Source: Candidatus Omnitrophota bacterium (GTDB lineage: Bacteria > Omnitrophota > Gorgyraeia > 2-01-FULL-45-10). From it: a stretch of 64,000 bases of DNA. The translations under genes were made by a program, and so were the position numbers. Location of the stretch: NCBI GenBank assembly GCA_026387175.1, contig JAPLME010000006.1, forward strand, positions 108,078 through 172,077, written 5' to 3'. Below the pieces are notes generated by a model. The model was not told where the DNA came from. It was given only the letters and a program-made list of their open reading frames with translations, and did no database searches. Below, one piece after another: positions 3,015-53,911 of the stretch. Numbering within the stretch: position 1 is the first letter of the stretch; every line of letters begins with the position of its first letter.

Positions 3015-3742
3015 ATAGAAGGGCGAACAGCCTTTATGTACAACGAACCTGAGAACTCGCGCAGAATCGGAGTTGCCTCGAACATACGTCCCATCGCCGA
3101 AACCATACCGATCAAGGACCGGGGCACATACGGATGCAGCCAGTCAAAAGGCGCTATCTCGATCTCCCTAAAGCCCGATTCCCGCAATGTCTTCCTTAAC
3201 TTCCATCGGACAAATGCGGTCTCATTCGGCGAAACTTTAGGAAATAGGCCGCGGAACCTGCGCTCGGCCCAAACTTGCGGATTGAGCATATTGGGTTCGG
3301 TAAAACTGATTATACCATTAGGCTTCAGCAGTCGGAAAATTACTTTGAGCGCTTCCTGGAGATCAAGATGATGTAAGATCGAAGAGCCGATGATCGCGTC
3401 GAACGGGCCGTCCATATCGCAATCCTCAAATCGCCTTTTCACAAAGCGGACCCTGTCTTCCGGCAAATGCCGCGCCCTTGCCTTATTCAGCAGATCTTCC
3501 GAAATATCGACGGCCACTATACAGGCCCCTTTTTTGGCAAAGATCTCGGTGAAGAGCCCTGTGCCGCAACCGATCTCCAGGACACGCGCGCCCGGACGAA
3601 GCCGCGCGCCGGAGGCCACCATCTCCGCGCGCCGTTCGGCGCGCAAACGGCCGGCCGGCGTGGCCCATCCCCAGAGCAGTTCGGTATCGCCTTCGGCGAG
3701 ATATTTTCCATGTTCTATCTCGTGAGCGGCCCGTGTATTCAT
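3011..3742 (-). CDS. Class I SAM-dependent methyltransferase (start re-assigned to MNTRAAHEIEH)
   Basis: Motif VLEIGCGTGLFTEIFAKKGACIVAVDISEDLL and AIIGSSILHHL. The track ORF 3011..3835 overlaps the upstream gene by 97 nt. The internal ATG at 3740-3742 forms an ATGA overlap with the upstream stop at 3739-3741. Confidence 0.7.
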   Translation of the reverse strand: MNTRAAHEIEHGKYLAEGDTELLWGWATPAGRLRAERRAEMVASGARLRPGARVLEIGCGTGLFTEIFAKKGACIVAVDISEDLLNKARARHLPEDRVRFVKRRFEDCDMDGPFDAIIGSSILHHLDLQEALKVIFRLLKPNGIISFTEPNMLNPQVWAERRFRGLFPKVSPNETAFVRWKLRKTLRESGFREIEIAPFDWLHPYVPRSLIGMVSAMGRMFEATPILREFSGSLYIKAVRPSI

Positions 3743-4986
3743 GCGTGAGACCTCGGAGCCAGAGCGCGTATGCCATCTATTATCATAAGTATACCGCCCG
3801 CCGTAAATACTAACAGGAGCGGCTCTACCGACCAACGATGCCGTGCCTCTACGAAATAGAGCGAATGCGTGAACGTGAGCGCGGCGAAGAAGAGGCAGAT
3901 CAGGACAATGGCCGGCTTTTCGCCTTTCTTCGAAACGAATAGACGATAGAAGATCGAGAGAAGCGCCGGAAGGAGAATGGCGAGGTAGTATATCTTATAT
4001 AGGCCCATCCACCGTTTCGGGTAAAGCCCTCCCTGGTGCGGGGAAAAATACCAGAAATAGCCCATCTTTTTGATTATCCTCTTAATGAATCCCATCGGAT
4101 CATCTTTGAAATAACCGACCGTGAGTTTTTTAAGGTACTCTCCCTGCTCCAGCTCGTTCATCTTATAAAACTCTTCCGGAAGCTCCGAAGCCATCTTATC
4201 CACCGTCGTGACATTATCCTCGATATAGAGGGAGCCCGTCGTCCCGGGCGCGTTGCCGCACCAGAGGGCCTCCCATTTATTGGTCTGAAGCAGGACCGGT
4301 TTCCCGAAGACGATCCAGTTCCTGACGATCCACGGAGACAGGATGGCCCCGCTTATCGCCAATATGGCGAATGTCAATGACAACCACTTCCGCAGGGCTT
4401 CATGCGACACGATACAGAACCATGCAAGACCGAGGACCAGGAACGGCAGGGTGGTGAACCTGAAGTTGATCGCCAGCCCGGCGGCGATCCCGACAAATGC
4501 CGCGTTTCTTAAGTCCGGCCTTTCTTTCAGGCGGATGAGCGACCAGGTCAGAAGTATGAACAGGAAAGAATAGACGTTCATAGCATGCAGTTTCGATGTC
4601 GAATAGACGATGAACGGCGGATAGAGCGCCGCGAGGGCCGCGGCAATGATCGCGGCCTTTCTGTCAAATATGCTCCGCGCAATCAGAAAGATCGGCGCAG
4701 ATATAAGCGACGTCACCACGATCTGTATAAAAACGACATAGAGCGGGTTATGTCCGAATAATTTATATATGGTGAAACACAGGAGTATGTATCCGGGGGC
4801 CTCTAGGCCGTAATAATTTGTATGAAAATGCCTGTAATAAAACCCTCCCCCGTTCAGCATGTTATTGACTATCGATTCGTATTCGAAGAGGCCCGGTTTC
4901 ATATAGACGCCTGAACCGAATAAGAAGACGAGCTTCACCACGATCGAAAGGATCACCAGGAGCGCTATTATATTCTTATCACGCAT
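3739..4986 (-). CDS. GT-C fold integral membrane glycosyltransferase, ArnT/PMT_2 (GT39/GT83-like) family
   Basis: Multi-TM protein. The first loop FEYESIVNNMLNGGGF resembles the DE..Y...A..M...G motif. LFGHNPLYVVFIQIVVTSLISAPIFLIARSIFDRKAAIIAAALAALYPPFIVYSTS matches the PMT_2 core pattern. Confidence 0.55.
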   Translation of the reverse strand: MRDKNIIALLVILSIVVKLVFLFGSGVYMKPGLFEYESIVNNMLNGGGFYYRHFHTNYYGLEAPGYILLCFTIYKLFGHNPLYVVFIQIVVTSLISAPIFLIARSIFDRKAAIIAAALAALYPPFIVYSTSKLHAMNVYSFLFILLTWSLIRLKERPDLRNAAFVGIAAGLAINFRFTTLPFLVLGLAWFCIVSHEALRKWLSLTFAILAISGAILSPWIVRNWIVFGKPVLLQTNKWEALWCGNAPGTTGSLYIEDNVTTVDKMASELPEEFYKMNELEQGEYLKKLTVGYFKDDPMGFIKRIIKKMGYFWYFSPHQGGLYPKRWMGLYKIYYLAILLPALLSIFYRLFVSKKGEKPAIVLICLFFAALTFTHSLYFVEARHRWSVEPLLLVFTAGGILMIIDGIRALAPRSHA

Positions 4987-4995
4987 GCTATGGCC

Positions 4996-5910
4996 TCACC
5001 GGTACACTATCCTGTATCTTAAAAGCGCCGCGGCAAGGCTTACGTACGCCTTGTAGTTCATGGGATCTTCCTTGATGGCCCTGAGATACCATCTCCGGCT
5101 CGCCCTGAAATCGCGGTTATGATGATGCATCCTGCCTCCTGCGATCATAACGGACGCCCGGCGCTTCCGTACCATCGCATCGATCCCATCCTGTGATCTG
5201 TCGATCCGGGCAAAGTTCCTGTCGAGGAGCTTTAAAGTATTGACGGCATTGGATTCCGCGCTTCGTAAAAAGGCCCCCGTCTCCGTCACCCTGTAAAACG
5301 CAAGTGAATCCGGCAGGAAATGGAATCGGTATCTCTGCGATAATCGCATCCAGTAATCATAGTCCTCTATCGTAAAAAGCTCTTTGTCTTCGGAGTATTT
5401 CATGCCGTCGTCGAAGACGATCTTCCTCCGGAGGACGACCGCCGAAGAGTGCATGCAATTGCCTTTGAAGAGCAGCTTATTATACATGTTATCCGCGAGC
5501 GGGCCGAACGAAGTATGCCTTAATACCTTTCCGTTGTAGACCACGGCCTCATTATGAAAAACGAGATCGACGCCGGGGTTCTCATCGAGTATCTCCCTGC
5601 AGCGCGCAAGCTTATCTTCGCGCCAGGTATCATCCCCGTCGAGAAGAGCGATATATTTGCCGCGGGCAAGGCTCATACCCCTGTTCCTGCCGCATGCGGG
5701 CAGACCGCTGTTCTCCTGATAAAAATATTTAACTCTTTTATCGTCGATCCCGGCAATGATCTCCCTGGTATCATCTTTAGAGCCATCGTCGAAGACGATG
5801 ACCTCGAGGTCGGCAAAAGTCTGTTTAAGGACGGACCTGACCGTTTCCTCTATATACTTGCCGTGATTATATGCCGCTATTACTACGCTGATCTCAGGCA
5901 CCTTTTCCAC
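4996..5910 (-). CDS. GT2 family glycosyltransferase
   Basis: ISVVIAAYNHGKYIEETVRSVLKQTF...VIVFDDGSKDDT...LLDGDDTW (DXD) motifs. Confidence 0.8.
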   Translation of the reverse strand: MEKVPEISVVIAAYNHGKYIEETVRSVLKQTFADLEVIVFDDGSKDDTREIIAGIDDKRVKYFYQENSGLPACGRNRGMSLARGKYIALLDGDDTWREDKLARCREILDENPGVDLVFHNEAVVYNGKVLRHTSFGPLADNMYNKLLFKGNCMHSSAVVLRRKIVFDDGMKYSEDKELFTIEDYDYWMRLSQRYRFHFLPDSLAFYRVTETGAFLRSAESNAVNTLKLLDRNFARIDRSQDGIDAMVRKRRASVMIAGGRMHHHNRDFRASRRWYLRAIKEDPMNYKAYVSLAAALLRYRIVYR

Positions 5911-6805
5911 AGCGTTCCTTTCTCATGGCCTTCATGGACAAAAGACCTTCCCGCAACCCCAGAGACACGAACCCTATCTCGCTCTCGATCTTCTCTGTGC
6001 GGTATGACGTGTTCTTCGGTCTCGGCGCTATATTCGGAAAGAAACTGCTATCGACGGGCTTGATCAGGCGCGCATCCAGCCCGAACACATCCGCAATGAG
6101 AAGCGCATAATCATAACGGCTGACTATGTCCCGCCCCGCGATATGATAAGTCCCCTTCTTGTCCATTTCGAGAAGCGACCAGATCGCTTCGGCGCAATTA
6201 TAGGCGCACAACGGATTATCGTAAACATCCACGACCATATTGACGTCCTTGCCGGAGCCGAGGGAGTCGATCAGGGCCGTGACGAGGTTCTTCCTTTCGC
6301 CTTCGTGGTTCCATCCGTACATCAGTATCGGCCTGACGATGATATTGTCCTCTAACGCTTTCTTGACCATGATCTCGCAATCTAATTTCATGGCTCCGTA
6401 TTTATTGATCGGGTTGACCTTGTCGTTCTCTCCGTAAGGGGCATGCTCCCCGTCAAAAACGGCATTGGTCGATATATATACAAGCTTTGCCTTTGCTTTT
6501 TCGCACAGTTCGACGATATTCTTTGTCCCCAGCACATTGGACCGGTATGCAAGGTCATAATGCCTCTCGCAAAAATCGACATCCGCCGCGCCTGCAGTAT
6601 GGATGACGGCGTCGATCTTCTTCGCCAGGAATACCGCCTCGAGCGCGCCGCGATCCTGCACGTCCGCCGGATAATACGTTATGTCGGGCCCGTTCGCCAT
6701 CCCATACTTGCCCAAATAGACGCCGGCGACCTTATGCGAAGGTTTTTTTGTATCGATGAGCGCCCTGCCCAACAGCCCCGTAGCGCCGGTTATCAAAATA
6801 TTCAT
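5894..6805 (-). CDS. RmlD-like NAD(P)H-dependent nucleotide-sugar 4-ketoreductase (dTDP-4-dehydrorhamnose reductase family)
   Basis: MNILITGATGLLGRAL Rossmann motif, YISTNAVFDGE, NKYGAMKLDCE (YxxxK) and C-terminal PRPKNTSYRTEKIE, colinear with RmlD. Confidence 0.6.
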   Translation of the reverse strand: MNILITGATGLLGRALIDTKKPSHKVAGVYLGKYGMANGPDITYYPADVQDRGALEAVFLAKKIDAVIHTAGAADVDFCERHYDLAYRSNVLGTKNIVELCEKAKAKLVYISTNAVFDGEHAPYGENDKVNPINKYGAMKLDCEIMVKKALEDNIIVRPILMYGWNHEGERKNLVTALIDSLGSGKDVNMVVDVYDNPLCAYNCAEAIWSLLEMDKKGTYHIAGRDIVSRYDYALLIADVFGLDARLIKPVDSSFFPNIAPRPKNTSYRTEKIESEIGFVSLGLREGLLSMKAMRKERCGKGA

Positions 6806-7863
6806 CTCTGTCCTTTTAAAAAATATCTCAACTTCTTCAGCATGGCACCGCGTCTTGTCGGCGCACCCAGGCAGTGCTGACAGGCGGTAGGAAGGGGCGT
6901 CCCCTTATTCCTGATATTATCCAGCAACGGCGCGCTCTTCTCCAGTATCGCTCCGAGCGTATCTTTCTGGATATTTCCAAGCGAGACTTTACCATCATAC
7001 GCCATGCAGCATGGAACGACATCGCCGCTTGACAGCACCCCCAATATCCTGCTATTGCACGGCCTGGCTTTTTTCACAGGATAGAATTTCTCAATCCTCC
7101 GGCCGTAAATGAAAGGCTTTATCTTCAACGAAATATTATCAGCAACTCTCAACCCCGGCTCCAGCATATAATTCGCACTAACATCTGCAAGATAACCATC
7201 GACAAGGTCGGCGTCGTATCGGTACGAGGGGATCCAAGCCTGCATCTCCCGTAAGAAGCCTTTGCTGTCGATCTTCAGGTCTTTTACAGTATCATATACG
7301 GAAGGATCACCCTGCTCAAGTCCAAGCAGCTGCTTCAATCTGCCGGTCCCGGATATAAAATTGCATGCAATATCAACGGTGACGTTCGAGGTGGTGTTGC
7401 GGACCGCTTTCAGGAATGCAAATATCCCATCCTTGTATTGCTGAAAATCGTATCCTGTCTTACGAACGCGGGAGAACAATCCGGCGCTCAATACCTGCAG
7501 CGACACCTTGATATATTCCGGGCGGGCATCGATTAGCCTATCTATCACCTCTTTTGAATTGAAAAGAAGTCCGTTCGTTACGATCATCACGGGCACCTTG
7601 CGCCCCCTGGCGTAACTGATGAAAGAATATATACGCTGATCGAGCAATGGTTCATTGAACTGGCTAAGGCAGAGATGCCGAAACTCTTCCGTCACACATA
7701 TCGAATCAATGACGCTGAACACGGCCTTATCCGGCAAGATACTGGCCTTATCGCGCCGTAGCGGATAACCGCAAAAATCGCAGTTCATATTGCAAAGGGA
7801 CATTGTCTCGAGTTGGAGGATGGAGAACCCGTATCGCGTTATGTCAACTTGCTGAAGGCTCAT
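6802..7863 (-). CDS. Radical SAM / SPASM-domain protein (start re-assigned to MSLQQVD)
   Basis: CNMNCDFC radical SAM cluster motif. C-terminal auxiliary-cluster cysteines CNSRILGVLSSGDVVPCCMAYDG...CQHCLG. The ATG at 7861-7863 forms an ATGA overlap with the upstream stop at 7860-7862. Confidence 0.65.
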   Translation of the reverse strand: MSLQQVDITRYGFSILQLETMSLCNMNCDFCGYPLRRDKASILPDKAVFSVIDSICVTEEFRHLCLSQFNEPLLDQRIYSFISYARGRKVPVMIVTNGLLFNSKEVIDRLIDARPEYIKVSLQVLSAGLFSRVRKTGYDFQQYKDGIFAFLKAVRNTTSNVTVDIACNFISGTGRLKQLLGLEQGDPSVYDTVKDLKIDSKGFLREMQAWIPSYRYDADLVDGYLADVSANYMLEPGLRVADNISLKIKPFIYGRRIEKFYPVKKARPCNSRILGVLSSGDVVPCCMAYDGKVSLGNIQKDTLGAILEKSAPLLDNIRNKGTPLPTACQHCLGAPTRRGAMLKKLRYFLKGQR

Positions 7864-8945
7864 CCGGCCCTCCTGTTGCGCAAACAGTGAAGCAGCCACG
7901 TAGCGCGGGTATAAAAGTGATGGTCGTGCAGCATCATATCCACCCTGCGTGAAACCGCGCCTGACAGGGAATTTTCACGCCACCGGATAAAACGCATATT
8001 TCTTTCGTATTCCCGCGGAAACGGCAGCGTCTTCTTTACCCGTGCACGCTTAAATATTCCTCTCGCCTTCCCATCCACATAAATCGGTTCCAGACCTTCT
8101 GCAACGCTTATCAATGCATTCCTTGAAAAATGGTACAGGTGAGCTATATGAAGTGAACCGAGATAACTACGGGTGGGGCTGTTATAATACTGGGCATTCT
8201 TGATGCTCGGCACCGATAGGAAGAGGATCCCGCTGTCCTTGAGAAGACCGCATGCCACCATGACCGCTGCCTTCGGATCTGCCAGATGCTCAAGCACATG
8301 GTTCATTATTACCAGGTCGAAGCGATCGCGGATATGCTTCATATCGTCGATGCCACCGTGGCGCAGATCAAGCCCTTTGTTAATGCTTCTGCCATACTCA
8401 AGATAGCTATCGTTTAGGTCATACCCCCGGACCTCAGCGCCTGCGTCCAGGAAGGAGGCCAATATTCCTCCGGCGGAACAACCGATCTCCATGACCGATT
8501 TACCCTTCAATGTAAACGCCTTGTAATGAGCACGGAGAAAATCCATTATGTACAACCCGTTCGTCCGCTGCGCCTTGAAATGCGCGGATATGCTTGACGT
8601 TCCGGAATTGAAATAGAGGTCTTGGTACTCCTTGCTGTAGAATTCTCTTAAAGAACGATCGTCGAGGCGGGGGTCTGTGCGTAATATACCGCAAGACTTG
8701 CAAATCACCGTATTCAAACTGAACCCGTAGCGGTCAGTTTCAGCGATAATCGCCGCATCGCCGGAACCGCACAGACATCGGCAGTGTTCAAGCGCATAGA
8801 TCCCGCTCCCGATCTTCTCCTGGATAGCATCCCGTAGCTTTATCTGTTCATCGCTTAACGGCAGGTGCGCTATGTTCGAGAATTGGTATTTCTTCGATAT
8901 TATTTTGCGATCGTGCGTGCTCATCTTATGACCCATTCGTTGCAA
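7860..8945 (-). CDS. Class I SAM methyltransferase with N-terminal zinc-ribbon (2x CxxC)
   Basis: CRCLCG...CKSCG zinc ribbon, then VMEIGCSAGGILASF and DLVIMNHVLEHL. Paralog of 19804..20805. Confidence 0.7.
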   Translation of the reverse strand: MQRMGHKMSTHDRKIISKKYQFSNIAHLPLSDEQIKLRDAIQEKIGSGIYALEHCRCLCGSGDAAIIAETDRYGFSLNTVICKSCGILRTDPRLDDRSLREFYSKEYQDLYFNSGTSSISAHFKAQRTNGLYIMDFLRAHYKAFTLKGKSVMEIGCSAGGILASFLDAGAEVRGYDLNDSYLEYGRSINKGLDLRHGGIDDMKHIRDRFDLVIMNHVLEHLADPKAAVMVACGLLKDSGILFLSVPSIKNAQYYNSPTRSYLGSLHIAHLYHFSRNALISVAEGLEPIYVDGKARGIFKRARVKKTLPFPREYERNMRFIRWRENSLSGAVSRRVDMMLHDHHFYTRATWLLHCLRNRRAG

Positions 8946-9554
8946 TTATGAAATTTTGGTTATATTTTCGCTATGCTTATAACTTTCTTCAAGCACATCG
9001 GCCACAGCCTTATCCCATTTATTCTGGGCCTTCAGTATGAGCCGTATCGCCTCTGCAACGGCACCTTCGCCGCCGTTCTTCTTCGTAATATAATCGGCGA
9101 CATCTTTCACCTCATCTACCGCGTCGTTTACCGCGATCGCAAGCCCGACGTTTTTCAAGATCGGGAGGTCCAGAAAATCGTCTCCCATATACGCTATAGA
9201 GTCCCGTGTTGCGCTATTATTCTTCATCACCTCATCCAGTGTCTCGAGCTTATTTATCCTGTCCAGATACAACTCATCTATCTTGATCTTGCTTGCCCGC
9301 TTAGACACCGCCTCGGAGGCCCTTCCCGATACCAGCACGATCTTAAGCCCTGCCGCCTTTGCTGCCCAGCAGGAAGACCCGTCATGTATGCAGAAGAGCC
9401 TCGTCTCGAAGAGCTTCTTCTTACCGAGATCGTCGTTACTCCAGATAACAAAAGGTTTCGTCATGACCCCGTCCGTATCTATGATGAGTATCTTGATCTT
9501 TACGATCTTCTCCCTCAACCTGCTGTCCATGCTATTCATGCGTCCCCCTATCAT
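8946..9554 (-). CDS. kdsC: KdsC-like HAD-superfamily phosphatase (3-deoxy-ulosonate 8/9-phosphate phosphatase family)
   Basis: ILIIDTDGVMT (DxDGV), VSGRASEAV, AYMGDDFLDLP, GGEGAVAEAIRLILKAQ. Colinear with E. coli KdsC and immediately downstream of kdsB. Confidence 0.7.
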   Translation of the reverse strand: MIGGRMNSMDSRLREKIVKIKILIIDTDGVMTKPFVIWSNDDLGKKKLFETRLFCIHDGSSCWAAKAAGLKIVLVSGRASEAVSKRASKIKIDELYLDRINKLETLDEVMKNNSATRDSIAYMGDDFLDLPILKNVGLAIAVNDAVDEVKDVADYITKKNGGEGAVAEAIRLILKAQNKWDKAVADVLEESYKHSENITKIS

Positions 9555-10302
9555 TCTTCATCTTTGCGAATATCCTGTTGACTTCAACCAGATCCGACGG
9601 CGTATCGACACTGTAGGTGCGATGTTTCGTCACAACCCCTTTAAGCTTATGCCCGTTCTCCAACACCCTCAAGAGTTCTATCCCTTCGATTATCTCGAGA
9701 GGCGTCTGCTTCATGGCCGCAAAACGCAGAAGATAATCCCGCCTGAATGCGTAAAGCCCGATCTGTTTGTATACGCAGTAATTCTTCCTTGCTTTAGGAT
9801 ACGGTATAGGAGCCCTGCTCATGAACATTATGTTCGCGTTGACATCCATCACGACCTTAACGTTCATCAGGTCTACAAGATCTGCAGGATCTGTTATCCT
9901 GCCGGCTAATGTGACAACATTCACCGCGCGGTCATCCATAAGAGGCCCGGCCGCCTGCGATATCATCTCCGGGTCGAGCAAGGGTTCATCACCCTGAACG
10001 TTGACTATGATGTCCGCCCCGCGTTTCTCTGCGACTTCGGCGATCCGGTCTGTGCCTGTCTGGTGCCGAGAAGACGTCATGACCGCTTTGCCGCCGAAAC
10101 CTTCAACGCACAATAGTATACGTTCATCGTCAGTGGCGACAACTACCTCATCAACTATCTTCGACTTGACGGCGCGATTATATACATGGTAGATCATCGG
10201 TTTACCCGCTATCATCGCCAAAGGTTTTCCTTCGAATCTGGTCGAGGCATAGCGCGCAGGTATGACCACTAAAACCTTCTGTCCAATACCGGTTCTCTTC
10301 AT
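9532..10302 (-). CDS. kdsB: 3-deoxy-manno-octulosonate cytidylyltransferase (CMP-Kdo synthetase family)
   Basis: VIPARYASTRFEGKPL, IVNVQGDEPLL, QIGLYAFRRDYL, EIIEGIELLRVLENGHK. Colinear with KdsB throughout. Confidence 0.85.
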   Translation of the reverse strand: MKRTGIGQKVLVVIPARYASTRFEGKPLAMIAGKPMIYHVYNRAVKSKIVDEVVVATDDERILLCVEGFGGKAVMTSSRHQTGTDRIAEVAEKRGADIIVNVQGDEPLLDPEMISQAAGPLMDDRAVNVVTLAGRITDPADLVDLMNVKVVMDVNANIMFMSRAPIPYPKARKNYCVYKQIGLYAFRRDYLLRFAAMKQTPLEIIEGIELLRVLENGHKLKGVVTKHRTYSVDTPSDLVEVNRIFAKMKNDRGTHE

Positions 10303-10352: not shown

Positions 10353-12299
10353 TTATGATCGGGCCAGCAGCTCTACCGCTTTCCCCGCAATCCTGTCCGA
10401 CGCCATACCGTCCGTTTTATAAAAACACTTGCGCAAGACCAGATCTTTAAGCTTTTCATCGGGCCTTAATGAGTCGGGATCTTCCAGTAATCTCCTGAAC
10501 TCCCGCCTCAGGCTCTCTACAGAATATGCGCTTGGGACTACACCAATATCTCTGAACACAGAGCCATTAAAACCATTAGCCTGCCACCGCACGACCGGTA
10601 TGCCTCTCAAGAACGCCTCTTCTCCGACAGTGGAGTATGTGAATAGAAGAAGGTCCGCGGAGTTAAGGTCTTCTTCAAGCGAAACATTGGATAAAGTAAA
10701 AGCATCTCTGTACCGTTTGTATGCGGGCATCTCCTCCATCTTGGCAAAGGGATGGCTTCGCAGGAATAAACGTATTCTCAGTCCCTCGCTCGCAAGCGGC
10801 GCAGCACGTACCATCTCGAAATCAAGCCGCACATTGAGCGTCGAAACTAAAAGGACTTTTGCCGGATCCGACGCTTTGCCTGATCGAGGTTTATTTCCGG
10901 CATTCTCCATATGATCAAAACGAGCGGATCCCGTCATGAATATCTTTTCGGCGGAAATACCGTTCTCAAGCAGGATATCCCTGCACAATTCTCCCATCAC
11001 GAAAAATCTATCGGGAGACGGCATCGCCTTTCCATCCGGCTTGCCGCTGAATTCCATCTCAGGATCTGCAAGTATAAATGTCTTCTCCCGGGCATAGCTT
11101 GCATGCTGCATATCACATTTTACGGTCGCGGGGCTTCCAAGAATAGCGCCCTGGTTAAAAGCCCTCGCCGACAGATAGAGCTCAAGAAAAGAAAACGATA
11201 CCTTGGGTTTATAAAAAGCGAATGCTCTTTTAAAAGCGGTCTCCATCAAATAATTATGCGGTAAAGAGGAGTCGCAGAACCCATAAGCCAATTTATTGCG
11301 AAAAAGCGGCATCATATCACAGCCGTCTTCCTTAAAGATAGCCTTGAACTCATCGGAACGGCTGAAACGAAGATACCTATAAGCAGGCCGCATGTCAAAA
11401 ACCAGGGAGGGTATATCCATCATCCTTAGAAACTTTTGTACAAAGATAAACTCGGCGTCTACGGTAGCGGATCCAAGGGCATCGATCGCTGATCTGCACC
11501 CTGGGGCATCTCCCGACTTCCGACCTACCCATAAAAACCATGCGCACTTAGCTCCCTTGCCGCGAAGCTTGTCGGGAAGCGCTTTAAAATATTTATCGTC
11601 TGCCTTGCCTGTACTGTCATCTATCTTGAGGCTCCAGCCCCAGAAACCTTGAAACACAATATTGGGCTCTGCGATAGGCACAATGGCGATCCGTTTCATA
11701 TAATGATATGCGCGTAAAGAATCGAATAAATATTTTATCCGCGAAAGAGTCGCCCGTATCAAACTGGTTCCTCTTTCAAATTGGCATTGCATTCCGGTGG
11801 TTTTATATTTCGTCTTCAATACGCTAATGACTTCTACCGGGGCGCCATATATCACGATCTCATAGGCCCCCTCCCTATCAGCTACGTACATGGCCGTGAA
11901 GATCTGCAGGAGCCTGTTAAATGTGTCATCGCGTTCAACCTGCTTTTCGCTCACCGCGTGATACCACCATGGATTGCCGCAACCGGGGATCTCAAGGGCC
12001 TGACGCAATGTTTTTCCATGACATGGCGTTGCCGCGATACGGGAGACTATATCAACGTATTTCTTGCGTGTATTTTCCCGGATCGCATCCATCTCCTTCC
12101 TGCCGAAAAAGAACCGCTGGAAACGCGAAGCCGCCCTGTATTCTTCGTCCGGCGGCATAAAGCTCAATACCGCCTCGCCGGAGACGGGGGAAATAGAGCT
12201 GTCTTTATAAAGAATGTATAATCTTTTCACTATTTTTCCGATCCACTTAACATTTGCATTAAAGAAGCGGGCTTTTGAACAACATGCATTCGCCCACAT
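10353..12299 (-). CDS. Large (about 648 aa) TagF/Glyphos_transf-like GT-B protein; candidate CDP/CMP-activated-substrate transferase
   Basis: C-terminal half carries SADLLLFTYSTVGEEAFLRGIPVV, resembling the TagF-family SDxLITDYSSVxFDxxxLxxPIIFY motif, and RSHP (HP motif). Paralogous to 26740..28653 and 18638..19816. The start is uncertain: the track start overlaps the upstream gene by 41 nt with no RBS, and alternative Met codons lie at 12158 and 12092. Confidence 0.4.
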   Translation of the reverse strand: MWANACCSKARFFNANVKWIGKIVKRLYILYKDSSISPVSGEAVLSFMPPDEEYRAASRFQRFFFGRKEMDAIRENTRKKYVDIVSRIAATPCHGKTLRQALEIPGCGNPWWYHAVSEKQVERDDTFNRLLQIFTAMYVADREGAYEIVIYGAPVEVISVLKTKYKTTGMQCQFERGTSLIRATLSRIKYLFDSLRAYHYMKRIAIVPIAEPNIVFQGFWGWSLKIDDSTGKADDKYFKALPDKLRGKGAKCAWFLWVGRKSGDAPGCRSAIDALGSATVDAEFIFVQKFLRMMDIPSLVFDMRPAYRYLRFSRSDEFKAIFKEDGCDMMPLFRNKLAYGFCDSSLPHNYLMETAFKRAFAFYKPKVSFSFLELYLSARAFNQGAILGSPATVKCDMQHASYAREKTFILADPEMEFSGKPDGKAMPSPDRFFVMGELCRDILLENGISAEKIFMTGSARFDHMENAGNKPRSGKASDPAKVLLVSTLNVRLDFEMVRAAPLASEGLRIRLFLRSHPFAKMEEMPAYKRYRDAFTLSNVSLEEDLNSADLLLFTYSTVGEEAFLRGIPVVRWQANGFNGSVFRDIGVVPSAYSVESLRREFRRLLEDPDSLRPDEKLKDLVLRKCFYKTDGMASDRIAGKAVELLARS

Positions 12300-13875: not shown

Positions 13876-15333
13876 TCAATACCTGTTCCATACTATTTTC
13901 ACCACGTACTGTTTGAGCCGCCTGCCGACCTTATTATTGAACGCGGACTTCACGGCGGTGCCGAACCAACTCTTCCACACTGCATCCATCAAAGTCCATA
14001 TATAGTATTTAATCCTATCCTTACCGCCCTTCTCTTTCATTATAAGTCGAACCCAGTTATCATGATAGTACCCGATCTTTTCCTTGGAGAGAGCCGGCAA
14101 GTCAAGGATCGAATCCTTCCTCTCTTCGAAACCATGTTTATCGGGTATGCCGGCAGGCATGAAACCTTTTTCCTCGCATACAGACCTGAGGACCGTACCC
14201 TTATAAGGATAGAATATATTTATGCCGTATGTGGATATCGACGGAAGACCTGCCATAGTCTTTATAGAATCATCTATCATCTCCGCAGTTTCAAAGGGAA
14301 GGCCTATTATGCATGACACCATAGTATTGATTCCGTGCCTGTGGCAGGTCTCGAAAGACTTCACAAGCACCTCTCTAGATATATTCCGTTTCATCACTTC
14401 GTTCCGGATGTAATCATTGCCCGACTCAACGCTCATCATAAGCGTCTTGCAGCCCGCTCGCTTCAATGACGCACAAACGTCATCATTGATGTGATTGGAG
14501 CGGGCCGTACACCAGAAAGGTCTTCTGATGGTCTTCTCATAAATAGCACAGAATTCCGTGATCCACCGTTTGTCGGACAGGAAAAGGTCATCCTGGAAAC
14601 ATAGAAGCTTATCGTTCTGTATCCTGTATTTTGTCAGGGTAGACGTTATCTCGCGCATCACGCTTTCAACGGTCCTGTAGCGCATGCGGTTCGTCGCCAT
14701 GCCGTATACTTTTCCGAGCGCCTCATTCGAACAGAATGTGCAACGATACGGACACCCTCTGTTAAAATGGAACAGGGCTACGTTCTGCCGGTCGATGATA
14801 TCCTGATACGGGAAGAGCTCGGTCGCCGGAAATGGCAAGGCGTCGAGATCGGCCATAAGCGGCGCGAGCTGATTCTTCACTATCCCGCCTGAGACCGAGT
14901 CCCTGTACGCGAGGTTTGGCACACTGCGCCACTCATCACCCTTTTCCAGTTTCGAGACGAGATCTAAAAGCGAGAACTCGCCTTCACCCATAATGACAGC
15001 ATCGAGCGGGCTCGCTTCTTCGATCACCACTTCAGGGAATAAGGTGGTAAAGACGCCGCCGCATACGACCAGACACGGATAGGCGCTCTTAATGCGCCGC
15101 GCGAGATCCCTTACATAAGGAAACTGGGTCTCGACAGCGGTGAATCCGACCACTGCAGGCTTGCGCGCCTTTATACCATCAAGAACACTTCCGATCTTCT
15201 TTACGCTATCTATGTAATTTATCCTGACTTCATGCCCGTTCGCCTTGAGCACGGCGCCTATCGACGCAAGGCCCGGATGATACGGCAGGCCGTGAAACGA
15301 TGACACATCCGGATATATCAACTCAACCTTCAT
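13876..15333 (-). CDS. B12-binding-domain radical SAM enzyme (class B)
   Basis: N-terminal MKVELIYPD...GHEVRINY...VVCGGVFTTLFPE (GGxHxT-like B12 domain). Radical SAM motif FNRGCPYRCTFCSNE. Confidence 0.8.
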   Translation of the reverse strand: MKVELIYPDVSSFHGLPYHPGLASIGAVLKANGHEVRINYIDSVKKIGSVLDGIKARKPAVVGFTAVETQFPYVRDLARRIKSAYPCLVVCGGVFTTLFPEVVIEEASPLDAVIMGEGEFSLLDLVSKLEKGDEWRSVPNLAYRDSVSGGIVKNQLAPLMADLDALPFPATELFPYQDIIDRQNVALFHFNRGCPYRCTFCSNEALGKVYGMATNRMRYRTVESVMREITSTLTKYRIQNDKLLCFQDDLFLSDKRWITEFCAIYEKTIRRPFWCTARSNHINDDVCASLKRAGCKTLMMSVESGNDYIRNEVMKRNISREVLVKSFETCHRHGINTMVSCIIGLPFETAEMIDDSIKTMAGLPSISTYGINIFYPYKGTVLRSVCEEKGFMPAGIPDKHGFEERKDSILDLPALSKEKIGYYHDNWVRLIMKEKGGKDRIKYYIWTLMDAVWKSWFGTAVKSAFNNKVGRRLKQYVVKIVWNRY

Positions 15334-23150: not shown

Positions 23151-23182
23151 AACATTCCTCCATCATTTAAAGGCCAACGGGA

Positions 23183-25572: not shown

Positions 25573-25575
25573 AGC

Positions 25576-26271
25576 TTATCCCCGCTTTTTTAAAATATTA
25601 TTTTTCATGAAATATTCACACACTTTTAAATCCTCGGCATTATCTATCTCGTACGATCTCCAGAAGTCCATAATATACATGCGCATCCTGCCGCCCAAAC
25701 GGTTCTTGCATCGTTTTAGTATCTCCGGTTTAAAAAGATATATCGAGCCGTTCTCCAGATAAAGCGGTTCCCTGTCCTGCCTGCGGCCTCTCTCCTTATA
25801 ATTAAAACTGACGCTCTTAAGCCGGGGGCCGATCTTCTTCCAAATGGTATAATCCTCCAGGATGGCCGCCGAAAACATCGAGTCGGCCTTCGTCGCGCGA
25901 AACTGCGCTATGGCCATATCTATATCTTTTGCGCGGCGAAGCGGCGAAGTAGCCTGAAGGAAGACCACCAGATCTATCCCGGCGCCTCTCTTCTCTATCT
26001 CCGATAGGGCATGCATAAGGGCATCTTCCGAGCTCGCAGTATCGGTCGATAGACGTTTCGGGCGCCTTATCACCTTCGCGCCGTATTTCTCCGAGACGGC
26101 GGCGATCGTATCGTCATCCGTTGTCACATATACGTCATCGATAAGGCTGCTCTCGAGCGCCTGCCGGATCGTCCAGGCTATCAGCGGCTTTCCACAGAAA
26201 TCCACAATATTCTTTTTCGGTATCGACTTCGAGCCGCCCCTGGCGGGAACGATGCAGATTATATGCGCCAT
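25576..26271 (-). CDS. neuA: CMP-N-acylneuraminate-type cytidylyltransferase (NeuA/CTP_transf_3 family)
   Basis: IVPARGGSKSIPKKNI, VYVTTDDD, FLQATSPLR, YLENGSIYLF. Confidence 0.85.
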   Translation of the reverse strand: MAHIICIVPARGGSKSIPKKNIVDFCGKPLIAWTIRQALESSLIDDVYVTTDDDTIAAVSEKYGAKVIRRPKRLSTDTASSEDALMHALSEIEKRGAGIDLVVFLQATSPLRRAKDIDMAIAQFRATKADSMFSAAILEDYTIWKKIGPRLKSVSFNYKERGRRQDREPLYLENGSIYLFKPEILKRCKNRLGGRMRMYIMDFWRSYEIDNAEDLKVCEYFMKNNILKKRG

Positions 26272-31362: not shown

Positions 31363-31366
31363 CTCT

Positions 31367-33259: not shown

Positions 33260-33283
33260 TGTCTCCTCTTTAGTATTTATATT

Positions 33284-33301: not shown

Positions 33302-33309
33302 GTTGAATA

Positions 33310-41783: not shown

Positions 41784-43169
41784 CTATGAGAAAAAGCATT
41801 TATTGCATATCGGGATCTTGCCATGCAGCATATTTTTGCGAAACCGCCTGTATTTCGGCGAGTTCCAGATATCCCTTATGGAAACATCTCGATCTATCTT
41901 CAATCCGTCCAAAAGGACCGTATTGAAGTCTATGCAGCATGGGGTGACGTTTCCGTTACACATGATTGAAATGGCCCTGTAGGCCCAACCGCACAAATTC
42001 TTTTTTCCTTCTATTATGGCTTTCTTATCCTTCTCGTTCAGCGTAAGGTCCTTTTGCAGCGGAGCTATCGAATATCCGTCCTCATCCGATAAACCGGTAA
42101 ATTCATGGAAAAAGCCTTTAAAGAGCAGCCTGTCCGCACCCAGCTCCTCCTTAAGCCTCTTAGCGCCTCCTTTCTGGCTCTCCGAATACCTTGTAAGGAT
42201 CATCTGGACGACTACCTCCGGCTTTAAGAGGCCCTTCTCCTTTTTTGCGGCGGTGAGGTTCTTTACAAATTCGAAGACAAGCTCAAAATTTCCGCCCTTC
42301 CTGAAGCTCTCGTATGCTGTCTTGTCCGTCCCGTCGACCGAAATACTGATCAGGTCCACACCTGTTCCTAACAGCCTGCGAACCAATTCTTTCGAGTCCG
42401 GTATATTGCCGTTTGTGTGCAGCTCTATGCGCGTGTAAGGAGATGATATCCTGCGCAGCTTTTTCAGGTAATCGATCATCTTATTATTCAAAAGCGGCTC
42501 GCCGAAGATGAAGGGATATATCGTGTCGAAATATCTGAAATTTATCCTGTTCTTTTCCGTTATATTGTCGAATAGCTCCTGCGGTATAAGCATCGGCGGC
42601 CTGTTAAGCTGCCCGAGGCCGGTAGGGCAACCCCTGCATTGCAGATTGCATATAGTGGTCGTCTCGATCGATATCTCCGAAGGGAACCCCAGGCTCACTC
42701 CCATCCTGAATCCCATCGAAATATGTATCAGTATCTTATTCACAAAAAAATAGAGCTTCTTCCGGAATGTTGCGAGAAATTGCCCCTTTGTTATGGCCCG
42801 CACTATCTCTTTGCTGCCGAAATCTATCATGAATATCTTTTTAAAGTTCATGAACAACAGCAGGAAAGCGGTATTAAGGCTGAAGCCGTAATCTATTATA
42901 GCGGCATCGAAGCCCATCCCTTTAAATATCTTCAATTGTTTCACAACTGAGGGTGCGCCTTTAGGCTCAAGGCTTGCCAGCTCAAGGACCGTTATTCCAA
43001 AGTCGTGATTTTTTGCCACATCTTCGGTGTTCGCGGTGATAAGCGTTATATCGTTTTCGGGAAAATATTTTCTGGCAACGGTTGCCGACGTATAGGCCCA
43101 GGAATAATTCGAAAAAAGGGCTATCTTCTTAAGGTTACTCATTTGCTCAGGGGCCTCCATGTCGATCAT
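41784..43169 (-). CDS. Radical SAM / SPASM-domain protein with an about 165-aa N-terminal extension of unknown function
   Basis: ETTTICNLQCRGCPTG radical SAM motif. C-terminal CGWAYRAISIMCNGNVTPCCIDFN...CNKCFFS auxiliary-cluster region. The N-terminal 165 aa has alternating beta-alpha character and no recognised motif. Confidence 0.6.
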   Translation of the reverse strand: MIDMEAPEQMSNLKKIALFSNYSWAYTSATVARKYFPENDITLITANTEDVAKNHDFGITVLELASLEPKGAPSVVKQLKIFKGMGFDAAIIDYGFSLNTAFLLLFMNFKKIFMIDFGSKEIVRAITKGQFLATFRKKLYFFVNKILIHISMGFRMGVSLGFPSEISIETTTICNLQCRGCPTGLGQLNRPPMLIPQELFDNITEKNRINFRYFDTIYPFIFGEPLLNNKMIDYLKKLRRISSPYTRIELHTNGNIPDSKELVRRLLGTGVDLISISVDGTDKTAYESFRKGGNFELVFEFVKNLTAAKKEKGLLKPEVVVQMILTRYSESQKGGAKRLKEELGADRLLFKGFFHEFTGLSDEDGYSIAPLQKDLTLNEKDKKAIIEGKKNLCGWAYRAISIMCNGNVTPCCIDFNTVLLDGLKIDRDVSIRDIWNSPKYRRFRKNMLHGKIPICNKCFFS

Positions 43170-52837: not shown

Positions 52838-53911
52838 CTACGCTCCGATACGGATGCCTTTATTGTCGGGACAGACCTTGCAGGGATCCGGGATCCGGCA
52901 ATTATCCTTAGACAGGAAGGCCCTCCGCATATCTTTAAAGAAAGCGTTGTTCCAGACATTTTCGTCTTTGTAGCTGCCATGCCCGGACATATTGAGCAGC
53001 ATCATCGAACAGCTGGAGACGTTGCCGTCCCCGTCGAACCTTATCTGGGAAAAATGCGTTTCGCAGTTATTTTCGCTCATATTCCTATCGACCAATAGCG
53101 GCGGAGTAAGCTTCCTCCTGATGGCGGCAGGATAGGACGCGAATATGGCTCTCATCTCGTCGATAACCTTCTTATCGGCCATAAGGGACCTCTCCTCGGC
53201 CCTGAGGCCGTCATAAGGGGCCGACAGGAAGTTGCAGAAGAAAGAGTGGTCGGCGCCCAGCGCAATACTGACATCCACCATATAGGGAATGAATTTGTAG
53301 TTATGCCTATCGATTATATATGACAACTTTACCTTCACACTTGAAGACCTCCGCCTCTTCTCTTCGACCAGCATCCTGACGGAGTCGTAAATCTCCTGAT
53401 AGGTTTCCGGGCCCATGCCGGTCATACGGCTGAACTCTTCCGAATTGTGCCCGTTTATGCTTATAGTGATGCCGTCCAGGGCCGAATTCAATATATTATC
53501 GATATTCTTCCGGATCATCGTGCCGTTGGAGAAGGTCTTTACGGTCATCTTCTTGAGCGCCGCGTAATCGACCATCTTGAAAAAATCCTTGTTCAGAAGC
53601 GGCTCGCCGGAACCTATTATATGCACCGTCGCAGCGTTCTTGAATCGGTTTATGATCTCCTTGAACCTTGCCAGGTCCATATCCTTTATGGACTGCTGGG
53701 CGTGGGCGTAGTCGCCGGGGACGCGCCCCGAATGCGTCGGACACATGTCACAGGAGAGCGTGCAACGGCCGGTCGCCACTATGGAGATGGTGACGGGATC
53801 GTAATGCAGCATCTCCTTCTTCCCTGAAAGAAGGTACCGTAAGTAATTGCTCTTTTGGGCCAGGGTATGAGGGGCCAGGACCATGTTGATCATATCTCTT
53901 GCGATACTCAT
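52838..53911 (-). CDS. Radical SAM / SPASM-domain protein
   Basis: ATGRCTLSCDMCPTHSG radical SAM motif. C-terminal CETHF...SSCSMML...CRIPDPCKVCPDN auxiliary-cluster cysteines. Confidence 0.65.
   Translation of the reverse strand: MSIARDMINMVLAPHTLAQKSNYLRYLLSGKKEMLHYDPVTISIVATGRCTLSCDMCPTHSGRVPGDYAHAQQSIKDMDLARFKEIINRFKNAATVHIIGSGEPLLNKDFFKMVDYAALKKMTVKTFSNGTMIRKNIDNILNSALDGITISINGHNSEEFSRMTGMGPETYQEIYDSVRMLVEEKRRRSSSVKVKLSYIIDRHNYKFIPYMVDVSIALGADHSFFCNFLSAPYDGLRAEERSLMADKKVIDEMRAIFASYPAAIRRKLTPPLLVDRNMSENNCETHFSQIRFDGDGNVSSCSMMLLNMSGHGSYKDENVWNNAFFKDMRRAFLSKDNCRIPDPCKVCPDNKGIRIGA

Follow-up and report, generated by a model that had tools for sequence, protein, structure and literature searches.

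A twitch-domain radical SAM protein in a CMP-Kdo-type gene cluster of an Omnitrophota bacterium is a likely carbohydrate-tailoring enzyme

The window analysed here is a 64,000-nt stretch of a Candidatus Omnitrophota contig, and a run of minus-strand genes for sugar enzymes lies in it around a radical SAM gene (Table 1). The order is 648-aa protein, KdsB, KdsC, methyltransferase, radical SAM, RmlD-like reductase and GT2; neighbours either overlap or lie no more than 50 nt apart, and the order around the radical SAM gene is repeated at the locus of a 66%-identical homologue. A prior sequence-only reading had already named the gene at 6802-7863 as radical SAM, and this holds: it matches Pfam Radical_SAM, and a Candidatus Omnitrophica "radical SAM protein" deposited from a metagenome-assembled genome matches its 353-aa product at 100% identity.

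Table 1. Positions in the window of the genes, motifs and junctions discussed in the text
Feature	Position	Strand	Basis or detail
Radical SAM gene, twitch domain, 353 aa	6802..7863	minus	Pfam, AF2, profile and fold matches
CX3CX2C (C24, C28, C31; CNMNCDFC), predicted SAM-cleaving [4Fe-4S] site	7771..7794	minus	translation and homologues
Twitch region C269-X10-G-X4-C285-C286...C328-X2-C331, one predicted auxiliary [4Fe-4S] site	6871..7059	minus	
Shine-Dalgarno AGGAGG	7869..7874	minus	5 nt ahead of the radical SAM ATG (sequence reading)
ATGA overlap, methyltransferase stop TGA / radical SAM ATG	7860..7863	minus	plus strand reads tcat
Second ATGA overlap, radical SAM stop / RmlD-like start	6802..6805	minus	plus strand reads tcat
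RmlD-like NAD(P)H-dependent keto-sugar reductase, 303 aa	5894..6805	minus	Pfam RmlD_sub_bind 2e-59
Class I SAM methyltransferase with N-terminal Cys4 zinc ribbon	7860..8936	minus	Pfam Methyltransf_23/11/12
Zinc ribbon C54-x-C56...C79-x2-C82 of the methyltransferase	8691..8777	minus	homologue alignment
KdsC-type HAD phosphatase	8946..9539	minus	TIGR01670, 122.8 bits (cutoff 106.95)
KdsB-type CMP-Kdo synthetase (CTP_transf_3)	9532..10302	minus	NF003952, 291 bits (cutoff 193)
648-aa distant TIGR04326 / BFO_1060-like protein, putative CMP-ulosonate transferase	10353..12299	minus	
GT2 glycosyltransferase	4996..5910	minus	Pfam Glycos_transf_2 5e-31
PMT_2 (GT-C) membrane glycosyltransferase	3739..4986	minus	Pfam PMT_2 3e-15
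Second twitch/SPASM radical SAM gene, 461 aa, N-terminal extension	41784..43169	minus	Pfam SPASM match
Third radical SAM gene, 348 aa, Cys-rich tail	52838..53884	minus	Pfam Radical_SAM only

The longest form of the open reading frame begins at a GTG (6802..7899, minus strand); we assigned the start to the ATG at 7863..7861, ahead of which stands the AGGAGG at 7869-7874. The ATGA that had been read as linking the gene to the methyltransferase is present, and a second one, absent from that reading, links it to the RmlD-like reductase. Such 4-nt overlaps occur at 16 of the roughly 56 gene junctions in the window, so coupling characterises the cluster as a whole rather than the methyltransferase/radical SAM pair in particular; taken alone, it does not discriminate between readings of the radical SAM gene.

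The protein belongs to the radical SAM superfamily (PF04055) by its CX3CX2C motif, by its Pfam score (residues 20-162, 53.9 bits against a cutoff of 29.5) and by an AF2 model (pLDDT 90.9) that resembles radical SAM structures. Across 38 aligned homologues C28 and C31 never vary, and conservation of C24 is at least 90%. The C-terminal region matches Pfam SPASM (residues 271-331, 39.7 bits against 21.5). Here C269, C285, C286 and C328 are invariant in the same homologues and C331 is at least 90% conserved; in a profile alignment C269/C285/C328/C331 fall on the auxiliary ligands C169/C187/C232/C235 of BtrN. The auxiliary-cluster cysteine pattern is thus present on alignment, in twitch form.

The SPASM seven-cysteine motif reads CX9-15GX4C, gap, CX2CX5CX3C, gap, C. 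In our protein only CX10GX4CC...CX2C is found, and the CX2CX5CX3C block of the second cluster is absent from all 38 homologues aligned. Two auxiliary clusters define the SPASM domain (PMC9012708). Judged by the position and conservation of its four cysteines, for which cluster binding is predicted, the C-terminal domain is a one-cluster twitch rather than a full SPASM domain. Pfam SPASM matches all the same because the model covers the first half of the motif, which twitch and SPASM domains have in common. The earlier label "SPASM-domain" protein therefore stands as regards the Pfam match and the auxiliary-cluster cysteines, but has to be narrowed to twitch.

Several other features are peculiar to the family or fixed within it. 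C286, in a PCC motif, is an invariant cysteine additional to the four predicted cluster ligands; C167 reaches at least 90% conservation, being Ser or Tyr in some of the 38 sequences. R77, R134, K247, K249 and a GAPTRRG motif make up a set of invariant basic residues that would suit an anionic sugar acid or a nucleotide-sugar. A large insertion at residues ~170-240 is specific to the family. Among the best 25 of 36 matches to curated NCBIfam radical SAM equivalogs, which include NirJ, the W-cofactor maturase, MoaA, MftC, PqqE and viperin, none comes near its cutoff (the top one scores 47.1 bits against 380), and by these models no named NCBIfam family appears to apply.

The nearest genes give the setting a specific character. 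The KdsB- and KdsC-type neighbours both exceed curated NCBIfam cutoffs; KdsA and KdsD are not in the window. The sequence-only reading had placed the gene in a nucleotide-sugar pathway, and the sugar enzymes agree with it; what they describe is more specifically a CMP-Kdo-type ulosonic-acid module than a generic pathway of that kind. The 648-aa protein matches TIGR04326 at E 1e-17, below cutoff, and a BFO_1060 domain weakly; it has no Pfam match and no significant sequence match to a solved structure (best E 0.95), and a transferase role is accordingly only putative. The reductase has dTDP-4-dehydrorhamnose reductases (RmlD; 4-keto-sugar reductases) as its best PDB sequence matches and scores 191.8 bits with TIGR01214, below the cutoff of 224. 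A DprE1/DprE2-like epimerisation of a polyprenyl-phosphate sugar was considered since GT2 and PMT_2 genes lie downstream of the radical SAM gene, and was set aside because the GT2 there is devoid of C-terminal membrane helices.

Two more radical SAM genes lie further along the window, and all three had been taken for SPASM proteins. This is right in Pfam terms for the gene at 41784-43169; the one at 52838-53884 has a Radical_SAM match and a Cys-rich tail, with no Pfam SPASM match. Identities among the three proteins are 22-25%: the second is 22% identical to the protein studied here, and the third 25% over 97 aa. The second gene is followed by the same epimerase, GT2 and PMT_2 series, with an SDR gene after the radical SAM gene, and its GT2 does have C-terminal membrane helices. 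An Rfam scan of the window returned no RNA family.

The zinc ribbon attributed to the partner methyltransferase is well founded, as C54, C56, C79 and C82 are invariant in 30 homologues. In Foldseek the AF2 model (pLDDT 89.3) finds KijD1, MtmC or TcaB9 in all of its top 18 PDB matches (E 2e-13 to 3e-11), so that folds of keto-sugar 3-C-methyltransferases stand four orders of magnitude ahead of UbiG; the TM-scores to TcaB9-type enzymes are 0.45-0.51, at 17-21% identity. A profile search of the PDB gives the same family at 3e-15 to 8e-12 (MtmC 3e-15, KijD1 1e-13). The closest match by sequence is the uncharacterised methyltransferase 3cc8. Relatives of the protein at 40-47% identity have a twitch radical SAM gene of another subfamily directly downstream, within Kdo-type clusters.

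A single-sequence PDB search with the radical SAM protein gives marginal matches only, and a profile search was needed to reveal BtrN, the top PDB match of the family profile (E 4e-13), aligned in two stretches that cover the radical SAM core and the twitch. By fold, DesII ranks first (Foldseek E 6e-12, TM 0.56) and the peptide epimerase EpeE second (E 2e-9; profile 9e-7). MoaA, BlsE, AbmM, viperin and BtrN are also among the nearest folds, which are mostly small-molecule or sugar-nucleotide enzymes.

The family is rare (91 clusters at E<=1e-30 among 1.84 billion clusters at 50% identity) and phylogenetically scattered, occurring in surface-glycan loci of Omnitrophota, Elusimicrobia, archaea and SAR11. 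We counted neighbours at 50 homologous loci that have 8 kb or more of flanking sequence. A CTP_transf_3 gene for a CMP-ulosonate cytidylyltransferase is present at 37 of them, and a large TIGR04326 / LIC12162 / BFO_1060-like protein, putatively an ulosonate transferase, at 39, often directly adjacent; full KdsA/KdsD/KdsC/KdsB sets adjoin homologues in one archaeal locus and others. The methyltransferase (8/50) and the RmlD-like reductase (7/50) are not constant partners, and the core reaction of the family cannot depend on them. Partners vary between lineages: an AroB/DHQS-like gene stands directly upstream at 16 of 90 loci, and B12-radical SAM genes are adjacent at some others; an AroB-like neighbour is seen with some SAR11 and Elusimicrobia homologues. 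The SAR11 members directly follow an AroB-like sugar-phosphate cyclase gene and a KdsB-like gene, next to a 5S rRNA gene, in what we take to be a hypervariable surface-glycan region. The literature searched yielded nothing on either this family or the action of radical SAM enzymes on ulosonic acids, and the Omnitrophota papers make no mention of the present cluster.

Taken together, these results indicate that the protein is very probably a carbohydrate-tailoring twitch enzyme of an ulosonic-acid pathway and not a peptide maturase. The alternative, that it modifies a ribosomal peptide or a protein side chain as most SPASM enzymes do, could draw on the Pfam SPASM match, on weak NCBIfam similarity to peptide and cofactor maturases (all far below cutoff among the best 25 of 36 matches), and on the ABC transporter, papain-like peptidase and Asn-synthase homologue elsewhere in the window. 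We nevertheless regard it as highly improbable. No precursor-peptide gene lies beside the radical SAM gene, both flanks of which are 4-nt overlaps. The window contains just three intergenic gaps longer than 60 nt (33260-33346, 41665-41783 and 59189-59370), and their small ORFs are unremarkable, with no plausible peptide. Across 99 related loci no small ORF of the precursor kind is conserved; the largest recurring families are translations of tRNA-Val and 5S rRNA genes, and each remaining one is confined to at most four closely related loci. No RRE or PqqD-type domain is matched in Pfam, and there is no room for one at the N-terminus, as only 23 residues precede the CX3CX2C motif. Add to this the single predicted auxiliary cluster in place of two, and conserved neighbours that are all sugar enzymes. 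The two proposals made from the sequence alone, that no precursor peptide is present and that the chemistry is carbohydrate-directed and of BtrN type, are both supported, the latter also by the BtrN profile match and the DesII fold match.

The most likely substrate of the radical SAM enzyme is a Kdo-type acidic sugar destined for a cell-surface polysaccharide, and the adjacent methyltransferase and reductase are its probable partners. From the gene structure, motifs, fold relationships and conserved neighbourhoods observed here we infer a substrate, an oxidation step, C- over O-methylation and an order of steps. The enzyme would cleave SAM at one [4Fe-4S] cluster, carry a single BtrN-type auxiliary cluster besides, and act on a Kdo-type (2-keto-3-deoxy) ulosonic acid. 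The KdsC-like phosphatase would release Kdo or a close analogue, from which the radical SAM enzyme would take a hydrogen at a carbinol carbon, passing an electron to the auxiliary cluster and turning a sugar hydroxyl into a ketone in a BtrN/DesII-like dehydrogenation. The zinc-ribbon methyltransferase may then C-methylate the carbon beside the ketone, and the RmlD-like enzyme may reduce the ketone with NAD(P)H. CMP activation of the branched (or epimerised) ulosonic acid would fall to the KdsB-like enzyme, and the activated sugar would be transferred by the 648-aa TIGR04326-like protein. The product of such a cassette would be a branched Kdo derivative. We propose the full sequence of oxidation, C-methylation and reduction by the radical SAM protein, the methyltransferase and the RmlD-like reductase tentatively, as somewhat short of probable. 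Counting against it, the C2 carbonyl of Kdo could itself activate C3 for methylation with no radical step; the methyltransferase is devoid of PF08421 and PF08484, resembles its fold relatives at modest TM-scores and has 3cc8 as its best sequence match; both partner genes are infrequent in the family; the likeness to BtrN is confined to core and twitch; and the window has neither KdsA nor KdsD.

Three other radical reactions on the sugar have to be weighed against this cassette. The invariant C286 would also suit a NeoN-type epimerase, in which hydrogen is abstracted from a sugar carbon and a non-ligand cysteine returns one to the opposite face, so that Kdo or a related sugar would be epimerised and not oxidised overall. 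NeoN works in this way in neomycin biosynthesis, and EpeE/YydG uses the same cysteine hydrogen return on peptides. Epimerisation would explain the conserved C167 and C286, is in keeping with EpeE as second-best fold match and a top profile match, and as a self-contained, redox-neutral reaction fits the lack of an adjacent reductase in most family members. Yet C167 is replaced in some members, C286 adjoins the ligand C285 and may simply be an alternative ligand, and a keto intermediate accounts better for the tight, recurrent pairing with a C-methyltransferase-like gene and for the keto-reductase coupled through ATGA; we consider epimerisation unlikely. By analogy with AprD4/AprD3, a radical 1,2-diol dehydratase would remove water from a vicinal diol and leave a deoxy-keto sugar for the RmlD-like enzyme to reduce, with a deoxygenated ulosonic acid as the end product. 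Ulosonic acids bear several vicinal diols, an ATGA overlap couples the radical SAM gene to that of an NAD(P)H keto-sugar reductase, and an SDR gene also follows the second twitch radical SAM gene of the window; against this stand the few family loci that have the reductase, and the predicted auxiliary cluster, as BtrN-type clusters with full Cys ligation are known best for two-electron oxidations (PMC9012708). This outcome seems to us distinctly unlikely.

A similarly low probability attaches to some other transformation of the sugar, such as decarboxylation (as in BlsE), C-C bond formation or ring rearrangement, for which the substrate might be the methyltransferase product or, in SAR11, the product of the AroB-like cyclase. 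BlsE, MoaA and AbmM occur among the fold and profile neighbours, partners change with lineage, and the large family-specific insertion would be in keeping with a different reaction; no specific feature, however, favours any one of these, and CMP activation downstream needs an intact C1 carboxylate and C2 centre, which counts against decarboxylation. Viperin-like chemistry on CTP was also considered, because a cytidylyltransferase gene adjoins the radical SAM gene, and was rejected: viperin ranks only midway among the fold neighbours, and with the viperin NCBIfam model the protein reaches 26, where the cutoff is 180.

Beyond this locus, SPASM/twitch radical SAM enzymes are routinely flagged as RiPP maturases in genome mining, and the present family points to surface-glycan chemistry. 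We suggest as an annotation rule that a twitch cysteine pattern with no RRE and with CTP_transf_3/TIGR04326 neighbours be read as sugar tailoring and not as RiPP. If the proposed cassette is correct, it would install a keto group on an ulosonic acid independently of oxygen and then a carbon branch, and it would predict a sugar type that is absent from the literature searched and not otherwise known to us. Genes in the surface-glycan regions of SAR11 and Omnitrophota would then also gain a function; variation of the cell surface in such regions is believed to influence phage/host interactions. A more speculative reading, which we consider unlikely, is that a zinc-ribbon C-methyltransferase-like protein and a twitch radical SAM protein together make C-branched or otherwise remodelled ulosonic acids, C-methyl-Kdo for instance, by a two-enzyme route that would be widespread and new to the literature. 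Radical oxidation would provide the keto group on Kdo in this route, a step that by our reasoning is beyond an RmlB-type 4,6-dehydratase. With the same reservation, the AroB-like, KdsB-like and radical SAM layout in SAR11, the ocean's most abundant bacteria, suggests a possible BtrC/BtrN-style carbocyclic or oxidised ulosonate on their surface.

Among known systems, BtrN, the butirosin 2-deoxy-scyllo-inosamine dehydrogenase (PDB 4M7T), is likewise a twitch radical SAM protein and aligns over core and twitch. It oxidises a secondary alcohol to a ketone on a carbohydrate-like small-molecule substrate (PMC9012708). Our protein is not a BtrN orthologue: single-sequence similarity is marginal (phmmer E ~0.005), it is ~100 residues longer (353 against 269-270 aa), and it differs in its extra invariant cysteine (PCC motif) and family insertion. 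BtrN serves a 2-deoxystreptamine pathway, whereas the window holds no such genes, and no DHQS-like gene next to the target, and its context is CMP-Kdo-type. DesII (dTDP-4-amino-4,6-dideoxyglucose deaminase/dehydrogenase, PDB 8HZV) is also a radical SAM enzyme, acting on a nucleotide-activated sugar; at 12-15% identity, with a profile match of only 2e-4 over the core and no DesII NCBIfam model among the best 25 of 36 matches, it is more distant, is ~120 residues longer, and has dTDP as its handle where the context here offers CMP or none.

The SPASM peptide maturases anSME, PqqE, SuiB, CteB and EpeE have the radical SAM core and CX9-15GX4C in common with the protein and are fold neighbours, but differ in the second-cluster block, RRE and precursor peptide, all missing here, and in the sugar context. 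NeoN, compared through its descriptions, is a radical SAM enzyme that epimerises sugars in aminoglycoside pathways and combines an auxiliary cluster with a catalytic cysteine, a logic that the extra conserved cysteines of the target would allow. AprD4/AprD3, also compared by description, pairs a radical SAM diol dehydratase with an NADPH reductase in apramycin biosynthesis; here too a radical SAM enzyme stands with a keto-sugar reductase, which is however not a constant partner of the family. The NDP-4-keto-sugar 3-C-methyltransferases TcaB9, KijD1 and MtmC have a Cys4 zinc site at the N-terminus and a class I methyltransferase domain after it, and the partner methyltransferase has both. It is ~50 residues shorter, its C-terminus is predicted to be helical, and neither the zinc domain PF08421 nor the NDP-sugar-binding C-terminal domain PF08484 is found in it (Pfam E<=0.01). 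We therefore treat it as a distant relative that may work like these enzymes, and not as a member of their family.

ORF calling recovered, on the minus strand, the radical SAM gene that the sequence-only reading had reported, with a longest frame of 6802..7899 opening on GTG. We place its start at the ATG at 7863..7861, which has AGGAGG ahead of it at 7869-7874; the resulting 353-aa product matches a deposited 'radical SAM protein' of a Candidatus Omnitrophica MAG (242-kb contig) at 100% identity. The proposed translational coupling to the zinc-ribbon methyltransferase holds: the plus strand reads tcat at 7860-7863, where the methyltransferase TGA overlaps the radical SAM ATG. A second ATGA, at 6802-6805 and absent from that reading, overlaps the radical SAM stop with the start of the RmlD-like gene. 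Because 16 of the ~56 gene junctions across the window are 4-nt overlaps by ORF coordinates, such an overlap is not peculiar to the methyltransferase and radical SAM pair.

Nearly the entire window is one minus-strand glycan cluster, in which the genes around the enzyme were assigned from Pfam and NCBIfam. It also encodes an ABC transporter, a Wzx-like flippase and, besides the KdsB-type gene, three more CTP_transf_3 genes, one of which adjoins NeuB, an HAD phosphatase, Fe-ADH and a DegT aminotransferase. With at least 12 methyltransferases (class I or TylF-type) within the ~63-kb cluster, the nine B12-radical SAM genes represent an unusually large methylation capacity, unactivated carbons included.

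Genes around the twitch-domain radical SAM enzyme, and further radical SAM genes of the window
Feature	Position	Strand	Remark
PMT_2 (GT-C) glycosyltransferase	3739-4986	-	
GT2 glycosyltransferase	4996-5910	-	
RmlD-like reductase	5894-6805	-	
Twitch-domain radical SAM enzyme	6802-7863	-	
Zinc-ribbon methyltransferase	7860-8936	-	
KdsC-type phosphatase	8946-9539	-	above NCBIfam cutoff
KdsB-type cytidylyltransferase	9532-10302	-	above NCBIfam cutoff
Distant TIGR04326 / BFO_1060-like protein	10353-12299	-	648 aa
Further twitch-like radical SAM	41784-43169		Pfam SPASM match
Further twitch-like radical SAM	52838-53884		no Pfam SPASM match
B12-binding (class B) radical SAM, nine genes	13876-15333, 17133-18635, 23183-24700, 28650-30044, 33347-34849, 36823-38307, 49796-51355, 51352-52833, 53913-55394		

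Several other parts of the cluster deserve mention. At 20807-26771, Fe-ADH and DegT aminotransferase genes lie beside a B12-radical SAM gene, a NeuB-type synthase, a PseF-like cytidylyltransferase and an HAD phosphatase; this is a second ulosonic-acid module, and resembles the KdnB/KdnA oxidation-amination logic of Kdo8N biosynthesis. The order twitch radical SAM, SDR (RmlD-like or epimerase), GT2, PMT_2 (GT-C) is present twice (3739-7863 and 38304-43169); the radical SAM genes of the two series are non-orthologous (22% identity), and the GT2 of the latter has C-terminal membrane helices, as in polyprenyl-phosphate sugar synthases. At 30697-32719 are two CTP_transf_3 genes, of which one is a weak match of 221 aa and the other a cytidylyltransferase/class I methyltransferase fusion of 450 aa. 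A papain-family Peptidase_C1 gene (60656-61456) and a transglutaminase-core gene (34846-35589) are found inside the sugar cluster. A small MarR/HTH-like protein (32735-33346, 174 aa) follows an 87-nt gap, one of only three sizeable ones, and the cluster may have an internal promoter or regulatory boundary here. At 1-983, two plus-strand ORFs (30-692 and 726-968) are probably spurious: on a longer contig, this stretch is covered by a minus-strand B12-radical SAM gene of 472 aa, which extends past the window start.

Pfam matches on the enzyme, Radical_SAM (residues 20-162, 53.9 bits) and SPASM (271-331, 39.7 bits), both exceed their gathering scores, and no NCBIfam model came near its cutoff, the top score among the best 25 of 36 matches being 47 bits against 380. 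In an alignment of 38 homologues (36-70% identity), C28 and C31 are invariant and C24 is at least 90% conserved; towards the C-terminus, C269, C285, C286 and C328 are invariant, and C331, together with C167, is at least 90% conserved. The C-terminal pattern is CX10GX4CC ... CX2C, in which the CX2CX5CX3C block, the second auxiliary cluster site of true SPASM domains, was not found. The name twitch stands for a shortened form of the SPASM domain with one auxiliary cluster (PMC9012708), and the domain here is accordingly of the twitch type; the SPASM domain of the sequence-only reading is not borne out in full, as the defining two-cluster feature is missing. That reading had counted three SPASM radical SAM enzymes in the window; of the other two, the first in the table retains a Pfam SPASM match and the second lacks one. 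All three twitch-like proteins share pairwise identities of only 22-25%.

Against all PDB sequences, the family profile ranks BtrN first (E 4e-13), aligning in two segments, one in the core and one in the twitch domain, with C269, C285, C328 and C331 placed on BtrN C169, C187, C232 and C235, its four auxiliary-cluster ligands. The confident AlphaFold model (pLDDT 90.9, pTM 0.89) has DesII, a sugar-nucleotide enzyme, as its best Foldseek match in the PDB (E 6e-12, TM 0.56), followed by EpeE, MoaA, PqqE, BlsE, SuiB, AbmM, viperin and BtrN; structural likeness to any PDB entry is distant, at TM <=0.56.

Could the enzyme instead act on a peptide? Only 23 residues precede its CX3CX2C motif, leaving no space for a peptide-recognition (RRE) domain. 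As the sequence-only reading had it, there is no precursor peptide nearby: both flanks overlap, and the window has only three gaps above 60 nt, whose small ORFs are unremarkable. Across the family, the radical SAM gene is flanked by a median gap of 13.5 nt on the upstream side and of 7 nt on the downstream side. Among recurring sets of small ORFs around family loci, the largest are translated tRNA-Val and 5S rRNA genes, close to which the SAR11 homologues are located; other recurring small ORFs occur in at most four closely related loci. An Rfam scan found no RNA families in the window. The enzyme fails every test of a RiPP maturase that was applied, and we consider peptide maturation highly improbable.

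An exhaustive profile search among 1.84 billion representatives returned only 91 clusters at E<=1e-30, so that the family is rare; its members come from Omnitrophota, Elusimicrobia, an archaeal MAG, Actinomycetota, Halobacteriovoraceae and many Pelagibacteraceae. For 99 homologous loci we called and clustered ORFs, labelling large clusters by Pfam and NCBIfam, and counted neighbours in the 50 loci that have 8 kb of flank or more, a sample dominated by marine SAR11-type contigs in which fractions are indicative only. The large TIGR04326 / LIC12162 / BFO_1060-like protein, often directly adjacent, is found in 39 of these, CTP_transf_3 in 37, GT2 in 29 and NeuB in 14; the zinc-ribbon methyltransferase (8/50) and RmlD-like reductase (7/50) are less frequent. 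Complete Kdo sets (KdsD, KdsA, KdsC, KdsB) adjoin homologues at several loci, the archaeal one included, and the gene order of the window is identical around a 66%-identical homologue.

SAR11-type loci carry a conserved block of SDR, KdsB-like, AroB/DHQS-like, radical SAM and 442-aa unknown genes (L014, 7346-12449; L015; L006, 10404-10518; L045, L055, L076 and L087), and the AroB/DHQS-like gene directly precedes the radical SAM homologue in 16 of 90 cases; an AroB-like cyclase next to a BtrN-like enzyme is reminiscent of BtrC/BtrN. In an Elusimicrobia-type locus (L023, 4528-15925), the homologue is preceded by Aminotran_3, SDR, TIGR04425 AroB-related cyclase (above cutoff) and HpcH/HpaI pyruvate aldolase genes and followed by B12-radical SAM, TIGR04326-like, HAD and KdsB-like genes, a set suggestive of a 2-keto-3-deoxy acid being made by an aldolase-based route.

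The methyltransferase has ribbon cysteines (C54, C56, C79, C82) that are invariant among 30 homologues. All top 18 PDB fold matches of its AlphaFold model (pLDDT 89.3) are KijD1, MtmC and TcaB9, keto-sugar 3-C-methyltransferases (E 2e-13 to 3e-11; TM ~0.5), with UbiG the next fold family (6e-9). A profile search likewise gave MtmC (3e-15), KijD1 (1e-13) and TcaB9 (8e-12), all ranking below the uncharacterised methyltransferase 3cc8; Pfam did not detect the zinc (PF08421) or C-terminal (PF08484) domain of the 3-C-methyltransferases. We treat it as a distant relative of these enzymes. Two homologues on unrelated contigs (40-47% identity) each have, as the next gene, a twitch radical SAM enzyme from a different subfamily. 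The surrounding clusters contain CTP_transf_3 genes and unannotated proteins of ~600 aa, to which one cluster adds KdsA and B12-radical SAM genes and the other adds genes of HMGL-like, Fe-ADH/DHQS-like and SDR type. The pairing is seen in further loci, and its recurrence makes methyltransferase then twitch radical SAM a conserved two-gene unit when viewed from the methyltransferase. At L106 (7001-8959) and the P0143 locus, the partners are 324-327-aa enzymes of another subfamily, that of L106 sharing 28% identity with the '310-aa' paralogue and 21% with the window enzyme; the pairing thus spans radical SAM subfamilies.

We conclude that the enzyme is very probably a twitch enzyme that tailors sugars in an ulosonic-acid pathway. 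Sugar ketones are reduced by RmlD-type enzymes, and TcaB9-type enzymes place a methyl group on the carbon beside such a ketone. BtrN converts a secondary alcohol into a ketone by oxidation (PMC9012708). With these three chemistries represented in three translationally linked genes, an oxidise, C-methylate and reduce cassette is the most economical reading. From the observed gene anatomy, one-cluster BtrN-type architecture, fold relationships and conserved neighbourhoods, we infer a mechanism in which the local KdsC would supply Kdo or a close analogue, the radical SAM enzyme would oxidise a hydroxyl to a ketone, the methyltransferase would methylate the adjacent carbon and the RmlD-like enzyme would reduce the ketone; the local KdsB would then activate the product for transfer by the 648-aa protein. 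CMP-Kdo is similar by ring position to the 2-deoxy-NDP-hexoses used by TcaB9-type enzymes. By our own reasoning, however, it cannot gain a keto group via an RmlB-type 4,6-dehydratase, which would be why a radical oxidant is needed.

The full cassette is tentative, its chance somewhat short of even. Its main weakness is that methyltransferase and reductase are found beside only a minority of the family, so that the family's core reaction must stand alone. A NeoN-like epimerase working through the extra invariant cysteine is an unlikely alternative to oxidation; an AprD4/AprD3-like dehydratase-reductase pair is slightly less likely again, on a par with some other radical chemistry.

Within a literature coverage that is incomplete, no publication turned up that deals with radical SAM chemistry acting on Kdo or nonulosonic acids. 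We rate the enzyme as a carbohydrate-directed twitch radical SAM protein of a new family, in a new context (CMP-ulosonic acids) and with a recurrent C-methyltransferase-like partner. In our view it acts like BtrN and DesII, yet belongs to neither.
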